Of a stretch of DNA of 64,000 nt, positions 1,912 to 50,800 are shown in pieces. The translations under genes were made by a program, and so were the position numbers. Source of the DNA: Octopus vulgaris (Eukaryota); NCBI GenBank assembly GCA_951406725.2, contig OX597816.1, forward strand, positions 56,544,001 to 56,608,000. Reading direction: 5' to 3'. The notes below the pieces were generated by a model. The model worked only from the letters and a program-made list of their open reading frames with translations, did no database searches and was not told the origin of the DNA. The stretch's first letter is position 1. Each line of letters begins with the position of its first letter.

Positions 1912-1937
1912 AATAGGTAGATAGAAAGAGTGATAGG

Positions 1938-1991
<54 letters not shown>

Positions 1992-2041
1992 CATAGGTAG
2001 ATAGAAAGAGAGATAGGTAGATAGATAGATAGGTACATAGG

Positions 2042-2072
<31 letters not shown>

Positions 2073-2081
2073 GTACATAGG

Positions 2082-2141
<60 letters not shown>

Positions 2142-2164
2142 CAGATAGGTAGATAGATAGATAG

Positions 2165-2228
<64 letters not shown>
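1912..2228. repeat. (GATA)n and (GA)n microsatellite on the 3' side of the Tx1 pair
   Basis: Seen directly. Confidence 0.95.
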
Positions 2229-2229
<1 letters not shown>

Positions 2230-2230
<1 letters not shown>

Positions 2231-3560
2231 GTTTCTTTATTGGCCACATAGGGCTGCACACAGATGGGACAAGTTACAAAGTAGAGCTTTTCTTTTGGGG
2301 GATGGAAAAAAACAAAAAACAAAAAAAAGAAACAAAAAAAAGGTGTCGTAGGTTTTCGATCAAAGGGGATCGTAAGAGAGAAAAAAAGAACAAAAAATAA
2401 AAAAAAGAAAGAAAAAAGAAAAAAAAGGAAAAGGAACAAAAGAAAAGAGAAATGAAAAAAAAAGAAGAAAAAAAAAGGAAAGAAAAAAGGGGAAAAATAA
2501 AAACGATCAATAGGGATCGTGTATCACAGTGTTATGATGTATGGTGTAAAGGGGAAAGCAAGTAAGGTTTATCCGTGGGAAGAAAAGCCTACGAAAAAGA
2601 CCACGGTAACCTTGGTCAATATTGTTATATGTTACCACATTTGTTTGCAAGTAGGTAACCTTCTGTTTTCAATTTCTGGGTTCATAGGATTATGCTCAAG
2701 GTGGCTTCGTCATTCATACGTGCCATCCTTGCTACATTCACCCATCTTTCTTTAAAACATTCGCTAGACAAAACTTGCCTCTCTACTCTCACTTTCCTTT
2801 TCAAGTGGTACTTGAAGAAGTTGATGAGAGATTGACCAGAGAGGAAAGTGTTTGTCTCCAATCCTTTCAAACGCGTCCACCAGATACATTCTTTCGCCAT
2901 AGCCACAAGGATGATGAAAATAGCTCTTCCTTCCTGTTTGAAGGAAGGAGGCGTGACAATATTGACGATAGACTCAGCTGATAAACCGACTCGTCCCACA
3001 CGTGACAGCAGTTGTTCGACATAAGCCCACAGGTCGGAAATTGTTGGACACTGCACGAGTGCGTGCAGAACGGTTTCGTCGCTCTGACCGCATCTCGGGC
3101 AGGTCGGCCCCGTGTTTCTCGAGCCGTGTCTGTAGAGCTTATCCCGAACGGGTAGCGCTTCTCGGTAGCACTGCCAGGCCAGGGATCTCTGAAGTTGTCC
3201 TGGCCCGAAAGTCGTCCCGAACAGGCGGGTCAGGTACTCCTCGTCGACGTCCAGGTTCGCCCCGAGCTCGTCGTCGTACCTCCCCTCCACTAATCCCCTA
3301 TAGAATGCTTTGGTTGTGATGAAGTCACTCAAGATCGACCCAGGACGGCAGAGTTGCTTGAGAGCAACGCGACACTCGCGGTGCCATTCGCCCTTCCTCG
3401 GCCTCTTTTTGATCCACGACTGCAGTTCGGTCATGGAGACGAGCTGCGGGAAAGCGTGCCTCACAAACGGCGACCACACCTGTTCACCGTCGTCTACGAA
3501 GAGCCTGAGATGCCGCAGTCTCAGCGCGTGTCTGCGCATCATCAACCACGGCATGCCCAG
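2230..3560 (-). mobile_element. 5'-truncated Tx1/L1-clade non-LTR retrotransposon (sister subfamily of the adjacent full-length copy)
   Basis: ORF 2682..3554 aligns to the C-terminus of ORF 3933..6476, including the zinc finger CPRCGQSDETVLHALVQC. The 3' UTR ends in AATAAAGAAAC. Flanked by (GA)n/(GATA)n and a (GATA)3 spacer at 3563-3575. Confidence 0.92.
2682..3554 (-). pseudogene. C-terminal part of Tx1-like ORF2 (post-RT region and zf-RVT-like zinc finger)
   Basis: 290-aa open frame, clearly paralogous to ORF2 of the full-length copy; lacks APE and RT. Confidence 0.85.
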
Positions 3561-3876
3561 TCAGATAGATAGATAACTTTCTTTTATTAGCCACACAGGG
3601 CTGAATACAGAGGGGACAAATACAAATGCAGAGCTTTTCTTTTCGAGGGTGGAAAAAAGAAAATAAATGTAAGATTGCGATCAAAAGGGATCGAGAGGAG
3701 GAAAAAAAGAAAATAAAAGGAAATCGTGTATCACAGAAATAATGATAAAAACATTGATATAACAAGATTGGGTTCATCCGTGGGAAGAAAAGCCTACAGA
3801 AAAGACCACGGGAACCTCAGTCAGGAGGAAATAACCACATGAGATCAAAATGCTCTCTTTCTTTCTTTTTTACGAT

Positions 3877-6800
3877 CTACAGGATCATGCTCAAAATGGT
3901 TTCGTCACTAGCACGCACCATCTTTGCAACATTCACCCATCTTTTTTTAATCTTTCGCGAGACAAAACTTCCCTCTCCATTCTCACCTTCCTTTTCAAGT
4001 GGTACTTGAAAAAGTTGATGAGCGATTGGCCAGAGAGGTAAGTGTTTGTCTCTAATCCTTTCGCTCGGGTCCACCACACACATTCTTTCACCATGGCCAC
4101 CAGTACGATGAAAACTGCCTTGCCTTCCCGGTTGAGGGAAGGGGGCGGAGCAATTCTCACGATAGACTCGGCCGATAGGCGGATTCGTCCCACACGTGAC
4201 AGCAGCCGTTCGGCATAAGCCCACAGGTCTGAAATGGTTGGACATTGCACGAGTGCGTGCAGAACGGTTTCGTCGCTCTGACCGCATCTCGGGCAAGTCG
4301 GTCCAGTGTGTCTGGAACCGTGTCTGTAGAGCTTATCCCGAACAGGTAATGCTTCTCGATAGCACTGCCAGGCCAGGGATCTTTGGTGATTGTTCATAGG
4401 TCCCGGCCCGAAAGTTGTCCTGAACAGGCGGGTCAGGTGTTCCTCGTCGACGCCCAGACTCTGCCCGAGTTCGTCGTCGCACCTCCCCTCCACTAATCCT
4501 CTATAGAATGCCTTTGTTGTGATGGAGTCGCACAAGTTCGATCCCGGACGGCAGAGTTGCTTGAGAGCAACGCGACACTCGCGGTGCCATTCGCCTAGCC
4601 TCGGTCTCTGCTTGATCCATGACTGTAGTTCGTCCAAGGAGACGAGCTGCGGGAAAGCGCGCCGCACAAAAGGCGACCACACCTGTTCACCGTTGTCTAT
4701 GAAGCGCCGGAGATGTCGCAGTCTCAGCGCATGTCTGCGCATCATCAACCACGGCATGCCCAGCCCTCCATTTAGCGGGTGTTGACAGCAAATGGATCGC
4801 CTAACCATCGGAACGTTTCCCTTCCACAAGAAGCGGAAGAGTATACGTTCCAGTTTGGTGATGGTAGGGTCGGGACAAGGCACGACGGTCAGACGATACT
4901 CGATGACGGATGCGATGTACGCGTTCGCCACCTCCGCCCGACCTTTTAGGGATAGCTTTCTCTCAGCCCATTTCTGGGTGAGAGTAGCCACCCTAGTCGT
5001 TATCTCGCCCCAGTTCTTCTCCATTTGGAGGTCCGGACCGAACCAGACCCCGAGCAATTTAACCGGTCCGTCCGTCCAGCGTCCCACGATGGAGACGCTG
5101 TTGGACGGCATGGGCCTGCTTCTCCAGGTGCCGAGCCGCAAGCCCACTGACTTTTCCCGGTTAATTTTTGCTCCCGTTACCGCTTCGTATTCTTTTAGTG
5201 TCTCGCCGACCAGCTCGATGTGCTCGTAGCTCGACACTATGACGGTGACGTCATCCGCGTATGCAGACACGCTCCTCCCGCATCCCAGCTCTCGTGGGAT
5301 GCCCCTCAGCGTCGCCAGTTTCCGCAGTAGTGGCTCAAGAGTCAGTACATACAGCAGCGATGAGAGGGGGCATCCCTGACGAACCGAACGCATGATGTTA
5401 AAAGGTCTGGATAGATGACCATTTACGCGAACTACTGAGCGGATGCCGCTGTATAAGGCAGCGATCCAACCGCGGAAAACTGGACCGAAACCAGCCGCTT
5501 TAAGGACAGCCTCCAAGTAGTGATGGTCTACCCTATCGAAGGCTTTTGATTGATCCAAATTGATCAGCGCCCCACCCATGCCAGGATTCTTAACTACCCT
5601 GTCTATGATGTAGCGCATCAGATGGAGGTTGTCATGAATACTTCTACCCGGCACGGCGCATGTTTGCGCCTTGTCGATTAGTTTCTTGATGACAAGCGCC
5701 AACCTCTCGGCTAACACCTTGGCCAAAATTTTCAAATCTGCGTTGAGCAGAGTGATGGGCCTGAAATTATCTATGACGTCCCCCTTGTTTGGGTCTTTCT
5801 TAATCAGTGCCACTGCTCCTCGCTTTACAAAAGCAGGAATACTCCCGTTTTGCTGCCAGTTGCAGTAGACAGCTGCCAAGACGCCTCCAAACAAGTCTGG
5901 CATATGAAAATAAAGTTCGTAGGGCAGACCATCCAAGCCTGGTGACTTGTCTCTCGCGCAGCCTACCATCGCATCCTGTACGTCCGCAGCTGTGATAGGC
6001 CTTTCACAAGACTCCACCTCTCTTGCTGAGAGTCGTGGCAAGGCATGCAGGTAGGCACTAAAGTCCACTCTGCGTTCTGACCCACCACTTGTCCCAAACA
6101 GTTGGGTGAAGTGTTGTTGAAAAGCCCCACACATCCTTTTAGGCTCGAGCAATTCGCGCCCCTGTTCATCTATAAGAGACTTGATGGTGGCTCTGTTGCC
6201 TCGTTGCGTCTCCACCACTCGGGCCTCTTGGGCGGCTCCAACTCCTTCGTTCCTCAGAGCACGCATCCTAGCTCTGACAACGCATCCCTCGTGTTTGGCG
6301 TTGAGGTGTTGGTCGAGGGCCAATCTCGCCGCCAGCACGTTGGACGCGATGCCAGTTCTAAGTGCCTCTTCTAAAACCTTAACTAATTCTCCCTCTATTC
6401 TATTTCGGTCTAATGCTAGGGCTCTACTGTATCTGACTGATTCTGCTTTAATTGCTTTTTTAGGGCATACCACCATCTGTTGTTGATGATGGTACCCGTC
6501 AAAGCTCTCTTAACTAATGTGCTGATCCGGTCCCTGTAAACCTGTCGTGCTGTAAAAGACGCGTTCAGTTTCCAGTAACCAGGACCCTGCCTATGTGTCT
6601 TATCTAAGTCAAGTGTACAAGTCACAAACTTGTGATCTGTGTAACTGACTATATGAAATTGTGGACAACCTACACTATTTTTATCTATTGTCCTACAGAA
6701 TACTCTATCTAAGTATGATCTGGACGACCCGATGCGGTTACTCCATGTCCACATTGGCACATTCGGGTGGTCCAGTCGGTACCTGTCAGACAGTTGGAAA

Positions 6801-7312
6801 CGTCTGAGCAGGTCTTTGAGGCATTTGCATCCCCTTCTATTGCTATCTCTGCCCACGTAGTCTAGATGCGTGTCCAGGGTGGCATTCCAATCCCCCACTA
6901 AAAGTAAAGGACGAGACGTTCCCATGAAAGACTCTAGACGTCGAAAGAAATCTGGTCGGCCTGTTAAGGACGGAGCATAAACTGCTATCAGTCGAAAAGC
7001 ACACTCATTGCTGCCATCGACATCCAAAACGACCAGCCTACCCTCCGGGTCTAGGAAATTTGCTCTTACTTTGAGATCCAGACTCTTCCGGATAAGCACC
7101 GCGGTGCCACCTCCGCCCATTCTCGGTAGACACGGAGAAAAATAAATGTTGAAATGTGTACCGAAAATGTGCTGGAGTGCCCGCAAGCTGTGGAGTCTGG
7201 TCTCACTGATGGCTATGATATTCAGATTTAGTGACTTGATGTCATTTAACAGGTAGCCTTGTTTCCAAGGCGACCCCAAGCCACGTACATTTATACTGCC
7301 TATTCTGAGCAT
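3877..7312 (-). CDS. ORF2 polyprotein: APE endonuclease + reverse transcriptase + C-terminal zinc finger (two 1-nt frameshifts)
   Basis: APE motifs SINVRGL, ISETRL, VYAPS, VGDWNA, SYLDRVF, TDHKFV. RT motifs KSPGLDG, FRPITLLNADLKIL, LDQSKAFDRVDH, VRQGCPLS, AYADDV. Joined from ORFs 6416..7354, 3933..6476 and the end of 3877..4296; frameshifts at ~6455 and ~3945. Confidence 0.93.
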
Positions 7313-7378
7313 GTTCCGATAAAATTGTGTTTTACACACGAAAAGAAAGTGCAAAAAAGGAAAGAGAGAGAGAAAAGG

Positions 7379-9578
7379 TTACTTGTTGTTCGAAAGTCCT
7401 TTGTCTTTCACCTCACGGTCTTCTTCTATGAGGCTTTTGTAAAGTTTTTTCGATGAATACTTTTGAAATCTCCCTACTGCATCAGGGTAAAGAGATTTCA
7501 GGGTGCTGTATGTGTTCTGTGTTACGTGTATTATTTTAATGTGTTGTGGTGGTGTTGTGCGTGGGTGGTTACTTGTTTTTATGTCGTTTTCAGTTATGTT
7601 GGTGTTTGACCTAATGTGTTCCATTAGGTCGTGGTTGTTTGTGTTTATGGCTGTCAACATTGTTGGGGGTTTGATGATGGTGTGTTTGTGTTGATGTGTT
7701 TGTTTTCTGTGGATGTTTTTGTTTCGGGAGTGGTGTATCTTCCTGCTTTGTTTGTTATATTTTCTTTTCTTTTTTTCCCCTTTTTCTTCTCCCCCTGTGG
7801 CTATTTGCCAATCTTCTGTGTCTTCTTCGTCTAATGACAAATCAGAAGAATCAGAGCTTGGAAGAGGGAAAATATTGTGGTCTATTGTAGACTGTGTTGA
7901 TTTTGTTGTTGGTGTTGGTTGGTGAGCGTTTGGTTGTGGTGTATGCGGTTTTGGAGGTGGGGTGTGGGTATTTTGTGTTTGAGTGATTGTAAGTATTGTT
8001 GTGTTGTTTGGGGTCTCAATTTTGTGGGGATTTGTTTCTTCATTTTCGCTGAGTGTCTTTTTGGCAGATGTCCTTGGTTTGGGAGTTGGTTTATTCTTGG
8101 TTGTTGTTGTTGGTGATGTTGCTTCTGTTCCTGGTGCAGTTGGTGTGGTTGTTTGGTTGGTGAGGTTTGTTTTTGTTGGTTTTATGTGATTAGTTCTGTT
8201 CGTGCAAAACGTGGTGTGGGTAGTAAATCTGGTTTATTTGTTTTTTCCGGCTGCTGTTGTTGTTGCTGTTGTTTTCTTGCGGCAGATTTGCAGTCTTTTT
8301 TTAGGTGTTGCTCACTGCCGCATATGTAGCAACGTGGTCTTCTGCCATCGACGACCACATACAACTTGTGGTCTTCTGATACATATATCTGGGTGGGTAT
8401 TATTTTATGTCTTCTTGATTTATGTGTAGTAGAAATTCTATTTGTTTTCCCACCCAGTTTTTGTGCTCCGTGACCGTGGTTTCTAAAATATTGAAATTTT
8501 TCATTTTTACACATAAGGCCTTTACTAGCCATAGATTATTAGCTATTTTTGGGACATTGTTTCAAGTGATCTTAGTCACTTTCTGTCCTCGAAAGCTTGG
8601 TGTTAATGTAAGTTAATCTGAATGAAGAGTTAGCGTTGAGAAATGTCTTGCTAACTCTTCAGTGTGGAAATCCACTTGTATGTGTGCGAACTTGTTCCAC
8701 CAGGTCACATAGTCTTTGTAGTTCCAGATGGGTTTCAAGCATTTTTCTATTTTGCTTGTGTTAGCCTTCTCTGGGCTTTTTGTTTTCTTATTAATTATTT
8801 TATAAATAATTGTTCTTTTATTTTCATCTTCTAATATTTCTTCTGGTATGTTTATTTCACTATACCATCTAATTCTGTTATTGTAATGTTCGTGTCTTGT
8901 ATTTGTTGAGCAGTAAAATATACTGTTGTTTTTTTCTTTAATCGCCTCAGCGAAATTTGTTGTTGTTTTGTTATTTTTGTTGCTGGTGGTGATGTTGTTG
9001 TTGGCTGCAGTTTGTAAAATTGGTGTGTTTGGTTCGATTGTGCAAGTAGGAAGGGGTGGAAAATTATTTTCATAATTTATCCCTGTATTCGAGCAGCTTT
9101 TGTCAATTTGTTTGGTGGTTACAGTCTTTTGTTTATTCACTTCAGTTCTTGTTGTTGAAGTAGAACAGGTCTGAACGGAATTGTTGTTGTTGTTATTGTT
9201 GTTTTTGTTGTTGGTGGTGGTGTCAGTGGCAGAAGAGACAGCCGAGGCAGCAGATGTCGAAATGGTGGCGCAATTTTTATTTTTGTTGTCATTGTTATTG
9301 TTGTTGTTGTTGGTAGTTGAGGTAGTGGATGAGGTGGCGGCGGTGGTGGTGGTGGTGAAGGCGGTGGTGGTAACAGTAGTAGTCTCTATGTTGTTCTTGC
9401 TAGTGGCGGTGTTGGTGACAGGGTTGTTACTACAAGTAGTTGTAGCGTTCATTGCAGAGTCATTGATGATTTTACTTTGCGCGCAAAAATTATTTTTTTC
9501 TCCTAGCGTTTCCAGTCTAGGAGAAAGCTGGTCGATAAAGGAACGCGACCATCGTTCTACAATACAATTTCTTGACAT
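7379..9578 (-). pseudogene. Tx1-like ORF1 (nucleic-acid-binding protein, single CCHC knuckle), disrupted
   Basis: Pieces 8613..9662, 8182..8532 (CYICGSEQHLKKDC) and 7379..7840. Thr/Asn low-complexity N-terminus. In-frame stops at ~8613 and ~8565 plus a frameshift. Confidence 0.75.
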
Positions 9579-9785
9579 TTTGAAAATGCCGAGAAAGAAA
9601 TTACAAAAATTAAATAGGGTTGAAACTGCCCCTAGGGACGAATCCCTCCCTTGGAAAAGCACTCAAACGAAAGTTGGGTGCCTTACACAACTTATTTACA
9701 AAAATGTACACAAAAATTGGGCTATAGATAGTCAAAATAAACGATTACCTTCGGAGTCGAAGTGACAGCACGTCCACAGACAGAG

Positions 9786-9837
<52 letters not shown>

Positions 9838-9838
9838 C

Positions 9839-9933
<95 letters not shown>
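9786..9933. repeat. (GATA)n microsatellite on the 5' side of the Tx1 element
   Basis: Seen directly. Confidence 0.95.
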
Positions 9934-9936
<3 letters not shown>

Positions 9937-11174: not shown

Positions 11175-12115
11175 ATATTCTTTTCTACTCTGGGTACAAG
11201 GCTCGAAATTTTTGGTGAGGAGGCCAGTCGATTATATCGACCCAGTACGCAACTGGCACTTAATTTCGAAAGGACGAAAGGCAAAGTCGACCTCGGCGGA
11301 ATTTGAACAAATAATGTAAAGACAGACAAAATACCGCTAAGTATTTCGTCCGGCGTGCTAACGCTTCTTAATTCTTTATTGCCCAGAAGGGGCTAAACAG
11401 GGGGGGGGGGTCAAACAAGGACAGACAATGAGATTAAGTCGATTATATCGATCCCAGTGCGCAACTCGTACTTAATTTATCGACCCCGAAAGGATGAAAG
11501 GCAAAGTCGACCTCGGCGGAATTTGAACTCAGAACATAACGGCAGACGAAATAACTATTTCTTTACTACCCACAAGGGGCTAAACACAGAGGGGACAAAC
11601 AAGGACAGACAAACGCTAAGCATTTCACCCGGCGTGCTAATGTTTCTGCCAGCTCGCCGCCTTTACATTGACAAATATTTATTTTCTACTCAAAGTACAA
11701 AGCCCGAAATTTTTGGTGAGGAGGCCAATCGATTATATCGAACCCAGTACGCAACTGGTACTTAATTTATCAACCCCGAAAGGATGAAAGGCAAAGTCGA
11801 CCTCGGCGGAATTTGAACTCAGAACGTAAAGACAGACGAAATACCGCTAAGTATTTCGCCCGGCCGGCGTGCTAACGCTTCTTATTTCTTTACTACCCAC
11901 AAGGGGCTAAACACAGAGAGGACAAACAAGGACAGACAAACGGATTAAGTCGATTACAACGACCCCAGTGCGTAACTGGTACTTATTTAATCGACCCCGA
12001 AAGGATGAAAGGCAAAGTCGGCCTCGGCTGAATTTGAACTCATAACGTAACGGCAGACGAAATACGGCTACGCATTTCGTCCGGCGTGCTAACGTTTCTG
12101 CCAGCTCACCGCCTT
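11175..12115 (-). mobile_element. Tandem/nested cluster of tRNA-derived SINEs (body GTCGACTTTGCCTTTCATCCTTTCGGGGTCGAT) with two alternative 3' tails
   Basis: Four bodies (~11175-11368, 11370-11662, 11676-11882, 11883-12115) plus a tail-only insert at 11555-11613; B-box GAGTTCAAATTCC. Confidence 0.85.
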
Positions 12116-12318
12116 ACCATGACACATATGATTTTAATTATTCGCTCACGTGCATGCGGCCAAGGGCATATTTACAGTTATCGATTCATATGCATCTATA
12201 CTGCTTTATCTGTATGTTATTTATTTAGATATTGTTTATACTTGTAAATATTTCTATAGACGGATATGCCAAAACTATCATAACCATGCATTCAGCTAGA
12301 TATACCTTTCTTTATAGC

Positions 12319-13633: not shown

Positions 13634-16600
13634 AAATTTAATAGTGTTCACTTCCGGAATCCCTCACGCTGTGAAAGTTTCTAGATCCCCATCTTCCCCT
13701 TACATCCTCTAAAATGTTGAAAATTTCGACCTCACCTTCCTAACCTTCACCCTCTCAAATTCCTGTCTCTGGAATGTTGAAGATTTCTACCTCCCCTTAC
13801 TCCCATTCAATATCTGAAATCCCCCTCTCTTCAAGGGCCTATATAGTGTATATAGACTCAGGGGTCTATATAAGAACATATAGTGTATATTGGTCCAGGG
13901 GGCCTAGATTATAGAGACACTTGTTCCTATATACAGAATATAGTCCAAGGGGCTTATAAAGTGTATATAGGTCCAAGGGCCTATATAATGTGTATAGGCT
14001 CAGGGGGCCTATAGTGTATATAGGCCCAGGGTTACTATAGTGTATATAGGCCCACGTTGCCTATATACACTATATTGGACCAGGGGGCCTATATAGACTA
14101 CACAGACTCCCTGTCCCTATATGGATTTGTTGAAAATTTTGAAAAACTGTTACAGGATTTTGGTGAAAATTTTGAAACCCTTTCGGAAGGAATTTGATGA
14201 AAATTTTAAAAACTTTTAGAGGATTTTGGTGAAAATTTTGAAAAACTTTTCAAAGGGATTTGTAGAAAATTTTGAAAAACCGTTTGAAGAAATTTGATGG
14301 AAATTTTGACAAACATTTCAAAGGAATTCGAGGAAACTTTTGAAAAACGCTTCTAAGGAATATGAGGAAAATTTTGAAAATCTTATAGAGGATTTTGGTG
14401 AAAATTTCGACAAACTTTGCGAAGGAATTTGAGGAAAATTTTGAAGAAACTTTCAAAGGACTTTGAGGAAAATTTTGAAGTAATTTAAGAGGATTTTGGT
14501 GAAAATTTCGACAAACTTTCCAAAGGAATTTATGTGAAAATTTTGAAAAACACTTCCAAGTAATTGGAATGAAAATTTTGAAAACTTTCAAAGGAATTCA
14601 ATGAAAATTTTGTAAAAAATTTCGCGTAACAATGAAAAGTTTTATCAAAATTTTCATCAAACGCTTCTCGAAATTTTTTCAAATTTCATTGAAATGTTTT
14701 TCAAAAGTTTCATAAAATTCCTTTTAAATATTTTTTCAAACTTTTCATCAAAATCCTATACGGGTGCAGAAGTGGCAATATAGGCCCAGGTGTTACTAGA
14801 GTCTGCTTAGGAGACTATATAAGCTAATTATACCTATGGGTCCCAATATAGACAATATAGGCCGAGTTGTGACCTATATAGATTGAATAAGACCCTGGCC
14901 TATATAGCATATAACGTACCGGTGGGGCGCGAAATAGCCTAAAAAGGACCCGTGGGCGTATATATTTTTGCAATTTTTCATCATATTCCTTTGAAAAATT
15001 CATCAGAAATTTGCAGGAAAATCAATTGAAAATGCTTTGAAAATTTCCTCCGTATCCTATACAGGTGCAGAAGTTGCAATATAGACCCATTTTTTTTTCA
15101 GAGGCTATATAGGCTCATTCAGTATTGGCAGATATGCACAATATAGTGTATATAAGCCCAGAGGCCTATACAGTGTATATAGATTCGAGGGCCTATATAA
15201 TGTAGATAGGCCCAATGGGCTTATGGCACATAGTGGACCAGGAGGCCTGCACTATACAGGCACTTGTCCCTATATAATCTCTATATAATCTCTATATGCC
15301 CAGATGCCCGCATACTGTATATAGGCCAAGAGGCATCTATAATGGCCAAGGGGGTACATACAGGCACTGCATGCATATTTAGACTATACAGACACCTGTC
15401 TCTATATACATTACATATGCCCAGGGCCAATATCGTGTATATAGGCCAATGGGTTATTAAGTGTATATAGACACAGGGGCCTATATAAAGAATACAGGCC
15501 CAGGGGGCCAGTAGTGTATATTGGACCTTGGAACCTAGACTATACACGACCTTCTCCATACATATACTATATAGGCCCAGAGGTCTATATAGCCTATATA
15601 GGCCTAGGTGCCTATATAAGATATATAGGTACAGGGGCCTTATATTGTATATAGCTACAGGGGGCCTATATACACTATACAGCCCTCATGTCCCTAGTGT
15701 ATATAGACTCAGGGGCCTATATAATGTAGACAGGCCCAAGGGGCTTATAGTACATAGTGGACCAGGAGGCCTGCAATATACAGGCACTTGTCCCTATATA
15801 CTCTCTATATGCCCAGATGCCCGTATACTGCATATAGGCCAATAGGCCTATATAAAGTATATGGGCCAAGGGGGTCTATAGTGCATACAGGCACTGCAGG
15901 CATATTTAGACTATACAGACACGTGTCTCTATATACATTATATATGCCAAGGGCCAGTATCGTGTATATAGGCCCATGGGCCTACATAGTGTATATAGAC
16001 ACACGGGCCTATATGAATACAGGCCCAGGGGGGCTAATAGTGTATATTGGGCCAGGATGCCTGCACTATACAGGCACCTATCCCTATATACTCTCTATAC
16101 GCCCAGATGCTGTATATAGGCCCAGTGGCCCATATAATATATGTAGGTCAAGAGCGTCTATAGTGCATGCCTATATAGACTTTAAAGACACCAGTCTCTA
16201 TATACATTATATATGCCCAGGGTCAATATCGAGTATATAGGCCCATGGGCCTACCGAGTGTATATAGACACAGGGGCCTATATAATGAATACAGGCCCAG
16301 GGGACTAATAGTGTATATTGGGCCAGGGACTATACACGACATTCTCACTATATATACTATATAGGCCCAAGGTGCTTATATACACTATATTAGAGCAGGG
16401 AGCCTATAAAGACTAAACAGCCCTTTTGTCCCTACATAGATTTCATGAAAATTTTGAAAGTCTTTTAGAGGATTTTGATGAAAATTCTGAAAAACTTTTA
16501 GAGGATTTTGTTATATGACGTTGTGTTAAATGACGTGAAAGGACGTGACGTTGTATGGCTTGAAATGACGTGACATTAAGTGACGTTGAATGAGTCCTAT

Positions 16601-19022
16601 GCAATCTATATAGGCCCCTACTCGGCCTATATTTTCTATATTGGCACTCATGCGTATAAAGTCTCCTAACTTATATAGTCTCCTAAGCAGACTCTAGTAA
16701 CACCTGGGCCTATATTGCCACTTCTGCACCTATATAGGATTTTGATGAAAATTTTGAAAAAATATTTAAAAGGAATTTCATGAAACTTTTGAAAACATTT
16801 CAATGGAATTTGATAGAAATTTTAAAAACTTTCCAAAGTGTTCCATGAAAATTCTGAAAAAATTCCGAGAAGCGTTTGATGAAAATTTTGATAAAAATTT
16901 TCAGTGATTCACGAAATTTTTTTCAAAAATTTCATCAAATACCTTTGAAAAGTTTTACAAAATTTTGATCAAATTCCTTAAAAATGTTTTTTAAAATTCT
17001 CATCGAATTCTTTTGAAAGAGGCCTCTTGGCCTATATACAGTATACGGGCATCTGGGCATATAGAGATTATATAGGGACAAGTGCCTATATAGTGCAGGC
17101 CTCCTGGTCCACTATGTGCTATAAGCCCCTGGGCCTATCTACATTATATAGGCCCTCGAATCTATATACACTTTATAGGCCTATACACTGTATAGGCCTC
17201 TGGACTTATATACACTATATTGTGCATATTTGCCCATACTGAATGAGCCTATATAGCCTCTGAAAAAAAAATGGGTCTATATTGCAACTTCTGCACCTGT
17301 ATAGGATACGGATGAAAATTTTCAAAGCATTTTCAATTGATTTTCCTGCAAATTTCTGATCAATTTTTCAAAGGATTATGATGAAAAATTGCAAAAATAT
17401 ATACGCCCACGGGTCCTTTTTAGGCTATTTCGCGCCCCACCGGTATGTTATAAGCTAAATAGGCCCAGGGTCTTATTCAATCTATATAGGTCTCAACTCG
17501 GCCTATATTGTCTATATTGGCACCCATAGGTATAATTAGCTTATATAGTCTCCTAAGCAGACTCTAGTAACACCTGGGCCTATATTGCCACTTCTGCACC
17601 CGTATAGGATTTTGATGAAAAGTTTGAAAAAATATTTAAAAGGAATTTTATGAAACTTTTGAAAAACATTTCAATGAAATTTGATGAAAATTTTCAAAAC
17701 TTTCCAAAGTGTTCCATGAAAATTCTGAAAAAATTTCGAGAAGCGTTTGATGAAAATTTTGATAAAACTTTTCATTGTTACGCGAAATTTTTTACAAAAT
17801 TTTCATTGAATTCCTTTGAAAGTTTTCAAAATTTTCATTCCAATTACTTGGAAGTGTTTTTCAAAATTTTCACATAAATTCCTTTGGAAAGTTTGTCGAA
17901 ATTTTCACCAAAATCCTCTTAAATTACTTCAAAATTTTCCTCAAAGTCCTTTGAAAGTTTCTTCAAAATTTTCCTCAAATTCCTTCGCAAAGTTTGTCGA
18001 AATTTTCACCAAAATCCTCTATAAGATTTTCAAAATTTTCCTCATATTCCTTAGAAGCGTTTTTCAAAAGTTTCCTCGAATTCCTTTGAAATGTTTGTCA
18101 AAATTTCCATCAAATTTCTTCGAACGGTTTTTCAAAATTTTCTACAAATCCCTTTGAAAAGCTTTTCAAAATTTTCACCAAAATCCTCTAAAAGTTTTGA
18201 AAATTTTCATCAAATTCCTTCCGAAAGTGTTTCAAAATTTTCACCAAAATCCTGTAACAGTTTTTCAAAATTTTCAACAAATCCATATAGGGACAGGGAG
18301 TCTGTGTAGTCTAAAGAGGCCCCCTGGTCCAATATAGTGTATATAGGCAACGTTCTAGAGGGGGGGATTTGAGAGGGTGTAAGGGGAAGATGGGGATCTA
18401 GAAACTTTCACAGAGTGAGGGATTCCGGAAGTGAACACTATTAAATTTATAACTAATGTAGGATAAAATTCTTTTCAAAAAAATTTTATCAATGGCCAGC
18501 ATATCAAAAAATACTTTTAAACTCTGTGTAAGTTTCTTGATCGAATCACACGTGTCTCGAGATGTGCTGAAGATTTTCTATTTTGGATAAATTTGGGGTA
18601 CTTAGGTCTCTAATGTATATAGAGACACGTTTCTGTATAGTCTAAATATGATTGCAGTGCCTGTATGCACTATAGACCCCCTTGGTCCATATACTTTATA
18701 TAGGCCTATTGGCCTATATGCAGTATACAGGCATCTGGGCATATAGAGAGTATATAAGGACAAGTGCCTCTATATTGCAGGCCTCCTGGTCCACTATGTA
18801 CTATAAGCCCCCTGGGCCTGTCTACATTATATAGGCCCCTGAGTCTATATACACTATATAGGCCTATGGGCCTATATACACTGTATAGTGCATATTCGCC
18901 CATATTGAATGAACCTATATAGCCTCTGAAAAAAAAACCTGGGTCTATATTGCAACTTCTGCACCTGCATAGGATGCGGATGAAAATTTTCAAAGCATTT
19001 TCAAATGATTTTCCTGCAAATT
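13477..19022. repeat. Foldback-like complex of long inverted arms built from two degenerate ~30-bp minisatellites
   Basis: 13477-13710 is inverted at 18372-18607 and ~14035-15335 at ~17020-18352. Extra inverted pieces at 16600-16960 and 18608-19022. Repeat types GAAAATTTTGAAAAACTTT and GGCCTATATA. Confidence 0.9.
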
Positions 19023-29011: not shown

Positions 29012-29240
29012 TATTTCTTTATTGCCCACAAGGGGCTAAACACAGAGGGGACAAATAAGGACAAAGGGATTAAATCGATTAAAGCGACCCCAGTGCGTAT
29101 CAGGTACTTATTTAATCGACCCAGAAAGGATGAAAGGCAAAGTCGACCTCGGTGGAATTTGAACTCAGAACGTAGCGGCAGACGAAATACCGCTAAGCAT
29201 TTCGCCAGGCGTGTTAATGTTTCTGTCAGCTCACTGCCTT
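29012..29240 (-). mobile_element. tRNA SINE with Tx1-like tail (type B) and ~16-bp TSD
   Basis: TSD TAG(T/C)GTGTAGAATATT at 28996-29011 and 29241-29256. Confidence 0.9.
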
Positions 29241-34432: not shown

Positions 34433-34609
34433 TGAGAATAACTAAAAATAAAAGTCGACACAATCATTAACACATATTGTTGGACGGTTGAGCGTTGCTT
34501 TGACGTTTAGACAGAGGTGGAGTATGTCTATGTAAGTATCTATCTATCTATCCAGACAGACAGACACACAGACAGACAGACGAACAGACAGACAGACAGA
34601 CAGACAGAC

Positions 34610-34677
<68 letters not shown>

Positions 34678-49559: not shown

Positions 49560-50800
49560 CAGACTCTAACCACTCGACCTTGAACTTTGAGTTAAAACTG
49601 CTGCTTTGTTACAGACAAGATTAGTGAAATATGTGCCTGACAAATGACAATGGCGCCTACTGGTCTTCCTACAATTTCTCAAGATATCATAACTACGGGC
49701 ATATTTCCGCTTCGTCGTTCGCGCCAAAATGTTGACAGCAAACGTACCTTCAGAAGAGTGGAATTTGTCAATTCTACAAACAGAGAAAGAGCAGATGTCC
49801 CAATCTGTTGGACAAGATACAATGTCCAGATAATTATAAATTACAGAAGCAATATATACCTTAGTTACTTCTGAACAACATTTCCGGGAAAACTTCCTCT
49901 CGAGCAATTTCCTAGTGATATTATCAATTCTGCAAGATAATATCCATCTTCCCAGTCCTTATTCACTTGGTGTTCCGGCCGGAACAGGACACTGGCTTAA
50001 AAGAGTACTCTCTTCACTTATCCTGCATCTATTTGGAAACCATTTCAGTAAGGATTGTTTTGTTTGCTCCAATGGCACACACAGCTGTACATTAAAGCTA
50101 TCTAAATCGGCTTCACTTCGGACAACAGCCAAATTATAATTGACCTTAAAGAAATCTTTAGATGGATTCATATGTTATTTAGGTGTTCGAGATTACTGCT
50201 AAGTCAAGGTACTGCCTGGTACATTTTATTTAGCCTCTACTACGAACAGAAGGCCATCAAATGGTTGGTGCTATCACATATAGAGAAAACAGGCCTTCTA
50301 ACGACTATCATTTGAGTGAGTATGGTCAGGGATTTTGTCTGCGCGTTCCTGTTCTGTCCTGGAAAAGTTTTTTTATCGGTGCTTCATAACCAGAATTGTA
50401 CTTTTTGCTTCTACAAAAACGCATATTACCAGCTATGATATTATTCAACTCTAGTGACACATCAACCAGTTTACCATCGCATCTCACAATAAGGATAAAT
50501 TGCCAATTCATTCACGAAACAAAGGAGCTCTTGTTCGCGAGAGCCTCTAAAGATCTTACCTCCACCGACCCTCATTGGTGAGTACGAGTGATGACTTGCA
50601 TTTCCCTTCAAGTACTTCTCTACAAGGCTGTGTGATTTTTTGCCCCGCCGGCTTTTAGTTGTTACGCATCACTAAACACTAACCTTTGGGGCTCCTTCAT
50701 GTCATTTAGGCGTAGGCTAATAAAGTATTATTTTCTTATATCCGGACGTACCTCGACGCCAGACGTATTTATTCGTTTCTCTCTTAGAAACACGTACATA
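49560..50800 (-). mobile_element. Old, degraded Tx1-like RT fragment
   Basis: LERKFSRKCCSEVTKVYIASVIYNYLDIVSCP aligns with AERKLSLKGRAEVANAYIASVIEYRLTVVPCP of the young ORF2; upstream extent is approximate. Confidence 0.55.

Follow-up and report, generated by a model that had tools for sequence, protein, structure and literature searches.

The genome of Octopus vulgaris harbours an APE-type LINE lineage of several subfamilies that resides in (TATC)n/(GATA)n arrays in a single orientation. We consider it probable that the targeting is led by the lineage's own endonuclease (EN), which would nick the GATA strand at AGATA/G and so prime reverse transcription, with some help from RNA. That these elements target GATA arrays at all is close to certain. 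The lineage comprises about 10,000 or more copies or ends, and two of its members lie next to each other within the window analysed here, a 64,000 nt stretch corresponding to positions 56,544,001–56,608,000 of contig OX597816.1.

Element A (3576–9785, minus strand, the 5′ end being approximate) has a target-like leader at 9785–9776 and a conserved 5′ core from 9775, and is flanked on its 5′ side by a (GATA)n array (9787–9934, plus strand) that reads as TATC on the element strand. It is full-length, yet it is not intact. The Thr/Asn-rich ORF1 (7379–9578, minus strand) is broken over several frames, one of which (8185–8535) contains a CCHC zinc knuckle that matches PF00098 with an E-value of 2e-4 and exceeds the curated cut-off. 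ORF2 consists of an APE endonuclease frame (6419–7312, minus strand) with L1 EN-like active-site motifs and the hairpin loop SNRIGSSR, and of a second segment (3880–6461, minus strand) with a reverse transcriptase (YADD at 5261) and a C-terminal zf-RVT motif (CPRC at 4295); 1 nt shifts in A-runs interrupt it at about 6461 and again at about 3948. In profile searches the three ORF2 domains match PF03372 (APE), PF00078 (RT) and PF13966 (zf-RVT) respectively, and the closest named protein matches are from Argonauta hians (67 %) and a cuttlefish (53 %). Element B (2230–3562, minus strand) is a 5′-truncated member of another subfamily that retains the C-terminus of ORF2 with its zf-RVT (3560–2685) and a 3′ UTR, and in a stretch of 1,004 nt from ORF2 and the proximal UTR it is 83 % identical to element A. 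Between the two lies a spacer of 13 bp with the sequence TATCTATCTATCT (3563–3575, minus strand), which we read as a target remnant or duplication from the insertion of A beside B.

The preliminary description of this region had reported two subfamilies in the same orientation, one copy full-length and the other 5′-truncated, separated only by (GATA)3 and with similar 3′ junctions, and in all of these respects it was accurate: element A ends in AATAAAAGAAAGT and element B in AATAAAGAAACT, and each runs directly into TATCT. Two of its statements stand in part. Long GATA tracts were said to bound the pair on both sides, and this is so for the array upstream of A, but the 3′ flank of B (1913–2229, plus strand) reads on the element strand as TATCT (2229–2225) and about 19 CT units (2224–2188), and only then as an imperfect TATC array (1913–2187). 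Similarly, the 3′ UTRs described as different do differ in their middle part, but their last 90 nt are common at 82 % identity. At the 3′ end element A is 96–99 % identical to its closest relatives and element B 91–95 % to its own, and for this reason A is likely to be the later arrival, inserted 13 bp upstream of an older B. The arrangement of the two is not a matter of chance, as the genome-wide junction counts given below demonstrate. Elsewhere in the window, a GATA/GACA array at 34537–34677 has no element match beside it and represents an unoccupied site. An array of 27 bp and 34 bp repeats occupies 13713–18888, within which 14125–14623 and 17784–18282 look like inverted counterparts, possibly of a foldback-type element, and a short diverged RT-like fragment (49809–49940, minus strand) is 45 % identical to ORF2 over 44 aa.

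Judged by its architecture and by the nearest solved structure, the lineage belongs to the L1/Tx1 group of APE-type non-LTR retrotransposons. ORF2 has the N-terminal APE endonuclease, the RT and the C-terminal zinc motif of an APE-type element, and a gag-like CCHC knuckle in ORF1 is typical of Tx1. The copies bear the signature of TPRT, in that their 3′ end is fixed while 5′ truncation varies, the target is duplicated and LTRs are lacking. The closest solved structure is L1 ORF2p, with an E-value of 4e-61 as against 3e-20 for R2, a coarse comparison in that L1 and R2 were the only solved full-length proteins it covered. With the endonucleases of Xenopus Tx1L and human L1 (PDB 1vyb, 2v0r and 8sxt) the octopus enzyme shares, at the sequence level, the APE fold, the active-site motifs and the position of the hairpin loop, whereas the loop sequence and the target differ and no poly(A) tail is copied.

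When patterns were counted over the whole genome (2.80 Gb in 227 contigs), 3′ ends of the three-A type were followed by NN and TATCT in 8,145 of 9,540 cases (85 %), and with both end types pooled (TATC)3 came after 6,757 matches as against only five matches, at three loci, for (GATA)3. For the four-A end pattern TATCT is next in only 294 of 755 cases. Forty of these exceptions were fetched: three are A-type ends (two slipped and one reversed) and the other 37 belong to older relatives, in which ATT or ATC runs come next in about 30 as judged by eye and ORF2 homology of 39–70 % was found in 11. Among 125 distinct 3′ ends that were sampled, TATCT begins at +1 in 108, two units are present in 91 and five units in 62, and most of the remaining 17 reach the repeat after a short slip. 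Four copies lie in reverse orientation (L230, L281, L282 and L284); GATA flanks three of them (L230, L282 and L284) on either side, and the remaining one is without a 5′ junction in its locus. At the 3′ ends poly(A) is not copied, despite the presence of AATAAA 5–8 nt before the end. The flanks are thus far from random; random flanks in most copies were what the preliminary description had named as refuting its proposal.

The repeat is found at the 5′ junctions as well. TATC lies upstream of 28 of the 30 top full-length 5′ ends (L061–L090, which include three near-identical duplicates, L086–L088), the other two having (TC)n, and upstream of 30 of 31 further full-length copies (from L241–L280); nine truncated copies of this second set were left out because it would be circular to count junctions for which the last TATC run had itself served as the definition. 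For truncated copies the junction was called by BLAST against seven element copies. For 41 of the 125 sampled ends the locus did not contain a 5′ junction; the 84 others included 15 full-length or almost full-length copies, which leaves 69 truncated copies. TATCT is present at the 5′ junction (in the 20 nt that precede the match, or in its first 6 nt) in 62 of these and two units in 61, and for the 57 copies outside two stacks chosen by their density the corresponding numbers are 51 and 50; the background frequencies are 3 % for TATCT and 0.25 % for two units (window 10,001–64,000). GATAGATA was not seen at the 5′ junction of any of the 69. TATCT is missing near the junction in seven of the 69, and also in L290, L293, L296, L297 and L298, which are among 17 regions picked partly as exceptions.

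These junctions bear directly on the reading that TATC is a tail encoded by the element and grown by slippage, with the 5′ TATC derived from the tails of earlier copies or accumulated passively in repeat-rich regions. There are indeed a few copies with TATC on the 3′ side only, and in many cases the 5′ flank is a spacer that itself follows another copy. However, the 5′ TATC has the same orientation in 62 of the 69 truncated copies and the opposite orientation in none, and many 5′ arrays have no element upstream of them. In 14 of 82 two-sided copies a long upstream array is paired with a short downstream one, and eight show the reverse. Moreover, only 6,486 of 77,881 starts of pure (TATC)5 runs come 3–8 nt after AATAAA (control, 97) and about 92 % are without a preceding element end, so that most arrays are not element tails. 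In two off-target copies (L127 and L134) both junctions are free of TATC runs, and the element therefore carries no obligatory TATC tail. We regard an encoded tail, which the 5′ junctions largely refute, as very improbable. GATA is not confined to the 3′ side, and the insertion specificity for (TATC)n that had been proposed from the window is supported by the counts at both ends.

Five target duplications contain non-repeat letters and all of them begin with TATCT, their lengths ranging from 8 to 15 nt overall (8 nt in L011, 12–13 in L145, 13–15 in L037, 10–13 in L138 and 13–14 in L140). The duplication of L138 takes in the first bases of the downstream element, and later copies therefore insert beside earlier ones. 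When contigs of four public runs were compared with L011, no joint that skips the element was found and two runs carry the insertion; the upstream flank at this locus is repetitive.

Two C1 stacks, at about 60,397,000–60,432,000 (L162–L165) and about 19,000–59,000 (L166–L170), contain some 17 copies each, all in the same orientation, over about 35 and 43 kb, with TATC spacers of 5 to more than 1,000 bp. At least three ORF2 subfamilies are represented among these copies, along with four types of 3′ end, and one block of the first stack is duplicated. This duplicated block, the near-identity of L086–L088 and the common occurrence of one-base A-run losses are what could be held to favour segmental duplication or assembly artefacts as having multiplied a few element-plus-array units. 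The sampled copies nevertheless have many different truncation points and flanks and are spread over many contigs, and contigs from the four independent public runs show TATC past the 3′ end as loose ends. Such diversity of junctions refutes multiplication of a few units, which we hold to be extremely improbable. Both reading frames are open in seven of 40 copies taken from the best APE matches, and the average divergence of ORF2 within 39 of these copies is only 0.3 %, a sign that the lineage was active very recently; ORF2 is open over 1,145 aa in all 20 of the copies that were selected for an open frame. A search of assembled contigs listed no RNA data set that contains the element.

A programmed frameshift, or a lineage with a split ORF2, was also considered and rejected. 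The A-run shift after the APE domain occurs in about 35 of the best 132 APE matches, a ranking that favours such copies, and in its short form the run has the sequence A_AAA_AAG. Alleles of both lengths are, however, interspersed in the tree and occur on different SNP backgrounds, the sequence after the site has no notable fold (z −1.1), and 4 of 14 matches have a shortened second A-run as well. The one-base losses in the ORF2 A-runs (6456–6461 and 3942–3948) form no clade (L241–L280) and are slippage or assembly error.

We infer that the APE domain itself sets the target specificity. The EN motifs match the L1 active site in sequence comparisons. Three TATC-targeting subfamilies, about 82 % identical to one another in EN, have a common hairpin loop, [ST]NR[IV]GSSR. 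The loop of L209, a relative whose flank is not TATC, is different, and it is on this one outgroup copy that the link between loop and target rests. According to the text of PMC1950540, the loop helps to shape the nicking specificity of L1/Tx1L grafts, the Tx1L endonuclease is sequence-specific by itself, and RNA–DNA pairing may select among nicks.

From general knowledge of TPRT, the APE domain would nick the GATA strand at 5′-AGATA/GAT-3′ and the nicked strand would serve as primer. Reverse transcription would begin at the fixed 3′ end of the element, leaving poly(A) uncopied, and read-through UAUCU RNA probably pairs with the nicked strand and so aids priming. A top-strand cut about 5–14 nt further downstream would cause TATCT and the next bases to be duplicated, and since target repeats would remain on both sides after each insertion, later copies of any subfamily could land beside earlier ones. 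The phase of the nick is unreadable within perfect arrays and rests on the five informative duplications. Independent full-length copies have similar, imperfect leaders resembling the target ahead of the conserved 5′ core (for example TCTGTCTAT in seven and TTGACTGAC in four of 62 entries), and this suggests that transcription starts inside the upstream array. We note that leaders in L061–L090 and L241–L280 include TGTC, TGAC and CATC units, as if part of the donor's upstream array had been carried along.

The same genome contains other repeats that are related to these elements. An abundant SINE-like repeat, represented in the window at 11368–12130 and 29013–29240, is 84 % identical over its last 45 nt to the LINE 3′ end. 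TATCT is next in none of 26 distinct ends of this repeat, and the repeat is often found within further copies of this SINE, at one of two fixed positions. Scans of it for tRNA and Rfam matches were negative, and L209 is a weak candidate for its partner LINE. Older relatives of the LINEs (L201–L240; C1, C2) have a terminal GTGGCYAATAAAAGAAA motif and then ATT/ATC runs, and in L210, L225, L234 and L238 ATT likewise lies close to the 5′ limit of the ORF2 match. These ATT-flanked relatives are likely to be a sister group that targets (TTA)n; the EN domain was reached in one of 37 fetched older-relative loci, L209.

Targeting might instead be led by the RNA. In such a scheme the endonuclease would be loose, and transcripts beginning and ending in the donor's TATC array would prime only where UAUC pairs with the nicked GATA strand, so that the target is inherited from the donor site. 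The failure to copy poly(A), with AATAAA just 5–8 nt before the end, is in keeping with this, and common target-like leaders are expected if the RNA starts in the upstream array; a further point in its favour is that the SINE, whose 3′ tail is similar, is often inside other SINE copies and at TATCT in 0 of 26 cases, although it may use another of the genome's Tx1 lineages. Pairing between RNA and DNA may indeed select among nicks, but Tx1L EN is sequence-specific without it, both points being made in the text of PMC1950540. Against a leading role for RNA, the informative duplications all begin with TATCT, in keeping with a fixed nick, the TATC subfamilies have retained the EN loop and the off-target copies brought no TATC along. 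We therefore think RNA-led targeting rather unlikely, and it is equally doubtful that the target is inherited through the RNA, with read-through flanks steering both junctions and a change of landing site reprogramming the descendants. If it were, the relatives directed at GATA, ATT and SINE sequences, which have one 3′ terminal motif in common, would constitute a natural target-switching series within one genome, and self-renewing sites would build the 40 kb retrotransposon stacks.

A LINE has been termed target-specific when the target is present in more than 20 % of flanks (as set out in the text of PMC4494074), and in the octopus lineage it is present in 85 % of genome-wide 3′ ends of the three-A type and in 90 % of truncated 5′ ends. 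Microsatellite targeting by LINEs is already known. Kibi and Koshi of teleosts insert into (TC)n and (TTC)n respectively, and crocodilian Tx1 families into (TTCC)n/(TTTC)n (described in the texts of PMC4494074 and PMC3812793). Like these, the octopus elements are APE-type LINEs inserted specifically in a pyrimidine-rich microsatellite, and some copies are also located at TATCT/(TC)n boundaries. They differ from them in the (TATC)n target with its invariant TATCT, in the cephalopod host, in their number (~10,000 or more ends) and in their stacks of about 17 copies; the (TC)n or (TTC)n target of Kibi and Koshi is not theirs, (TC)n being upstream in only 2 of 30 full-length copies. Other microsatellite-targeting LINEs are Waldo (ACAY)n, Mino (AC)n and Dong (TAA)n, as given in the text of PMC3812793. 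These too have microsatellites as targets, but the target sequences differ from TATC. Waldo and Mino are members of the R1 clade, and Dong belongs to R4. SART1Bm, which inserts into (TTAGG)n, is similarly an APE LINE specific for a repeat, requiring several units of it and inserting at a fixed step, and differs from the octopus lineage in its telomeric target and long poly(A) tail (PMC7265360).

The O. vulgaris repeat annotation reported in PMC13282606 includes 13 recently active L1-Tx1 families with 421 insertions, and the GATA-targeting elements may be among these 13; the main text of that paper has neither the word 'target' nor a GATA association. No GATA- or TATC-targeting LINE was reported in the literature searched, which consisted of titles and the beginnings of abstracts and has Repbase Reports outside its coverage, and within these bounds the view that (GATA)n specificity was previously undescribed holds and the target is new. 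The main text of PMC4494074 is without GATA or TATC, its figure 3 and supplements, which list targets, being the parts that may bear on novelty, and the portion of PMC13708176 consulted has neither Tx1 nor GATA.

How LINEs choose microsatellites has been described as not well understood (in the text of PMC3812793), and the lineage described here adds the GATA tetranucleotide repeat to the short list of microsatellite targets of APE-type LINEs, in the form of a large lineage with very young members. The coexistence of subfamilies that share one target, ATT-flanked older relatives and a SINE that shares the tail makes possible a direct comparison of EN-led with RNA-led targeting. The lineage also offers a possible cause for local LINE hotspots, and GATA marker loci in the octopus genome can be broken up by its insertions.
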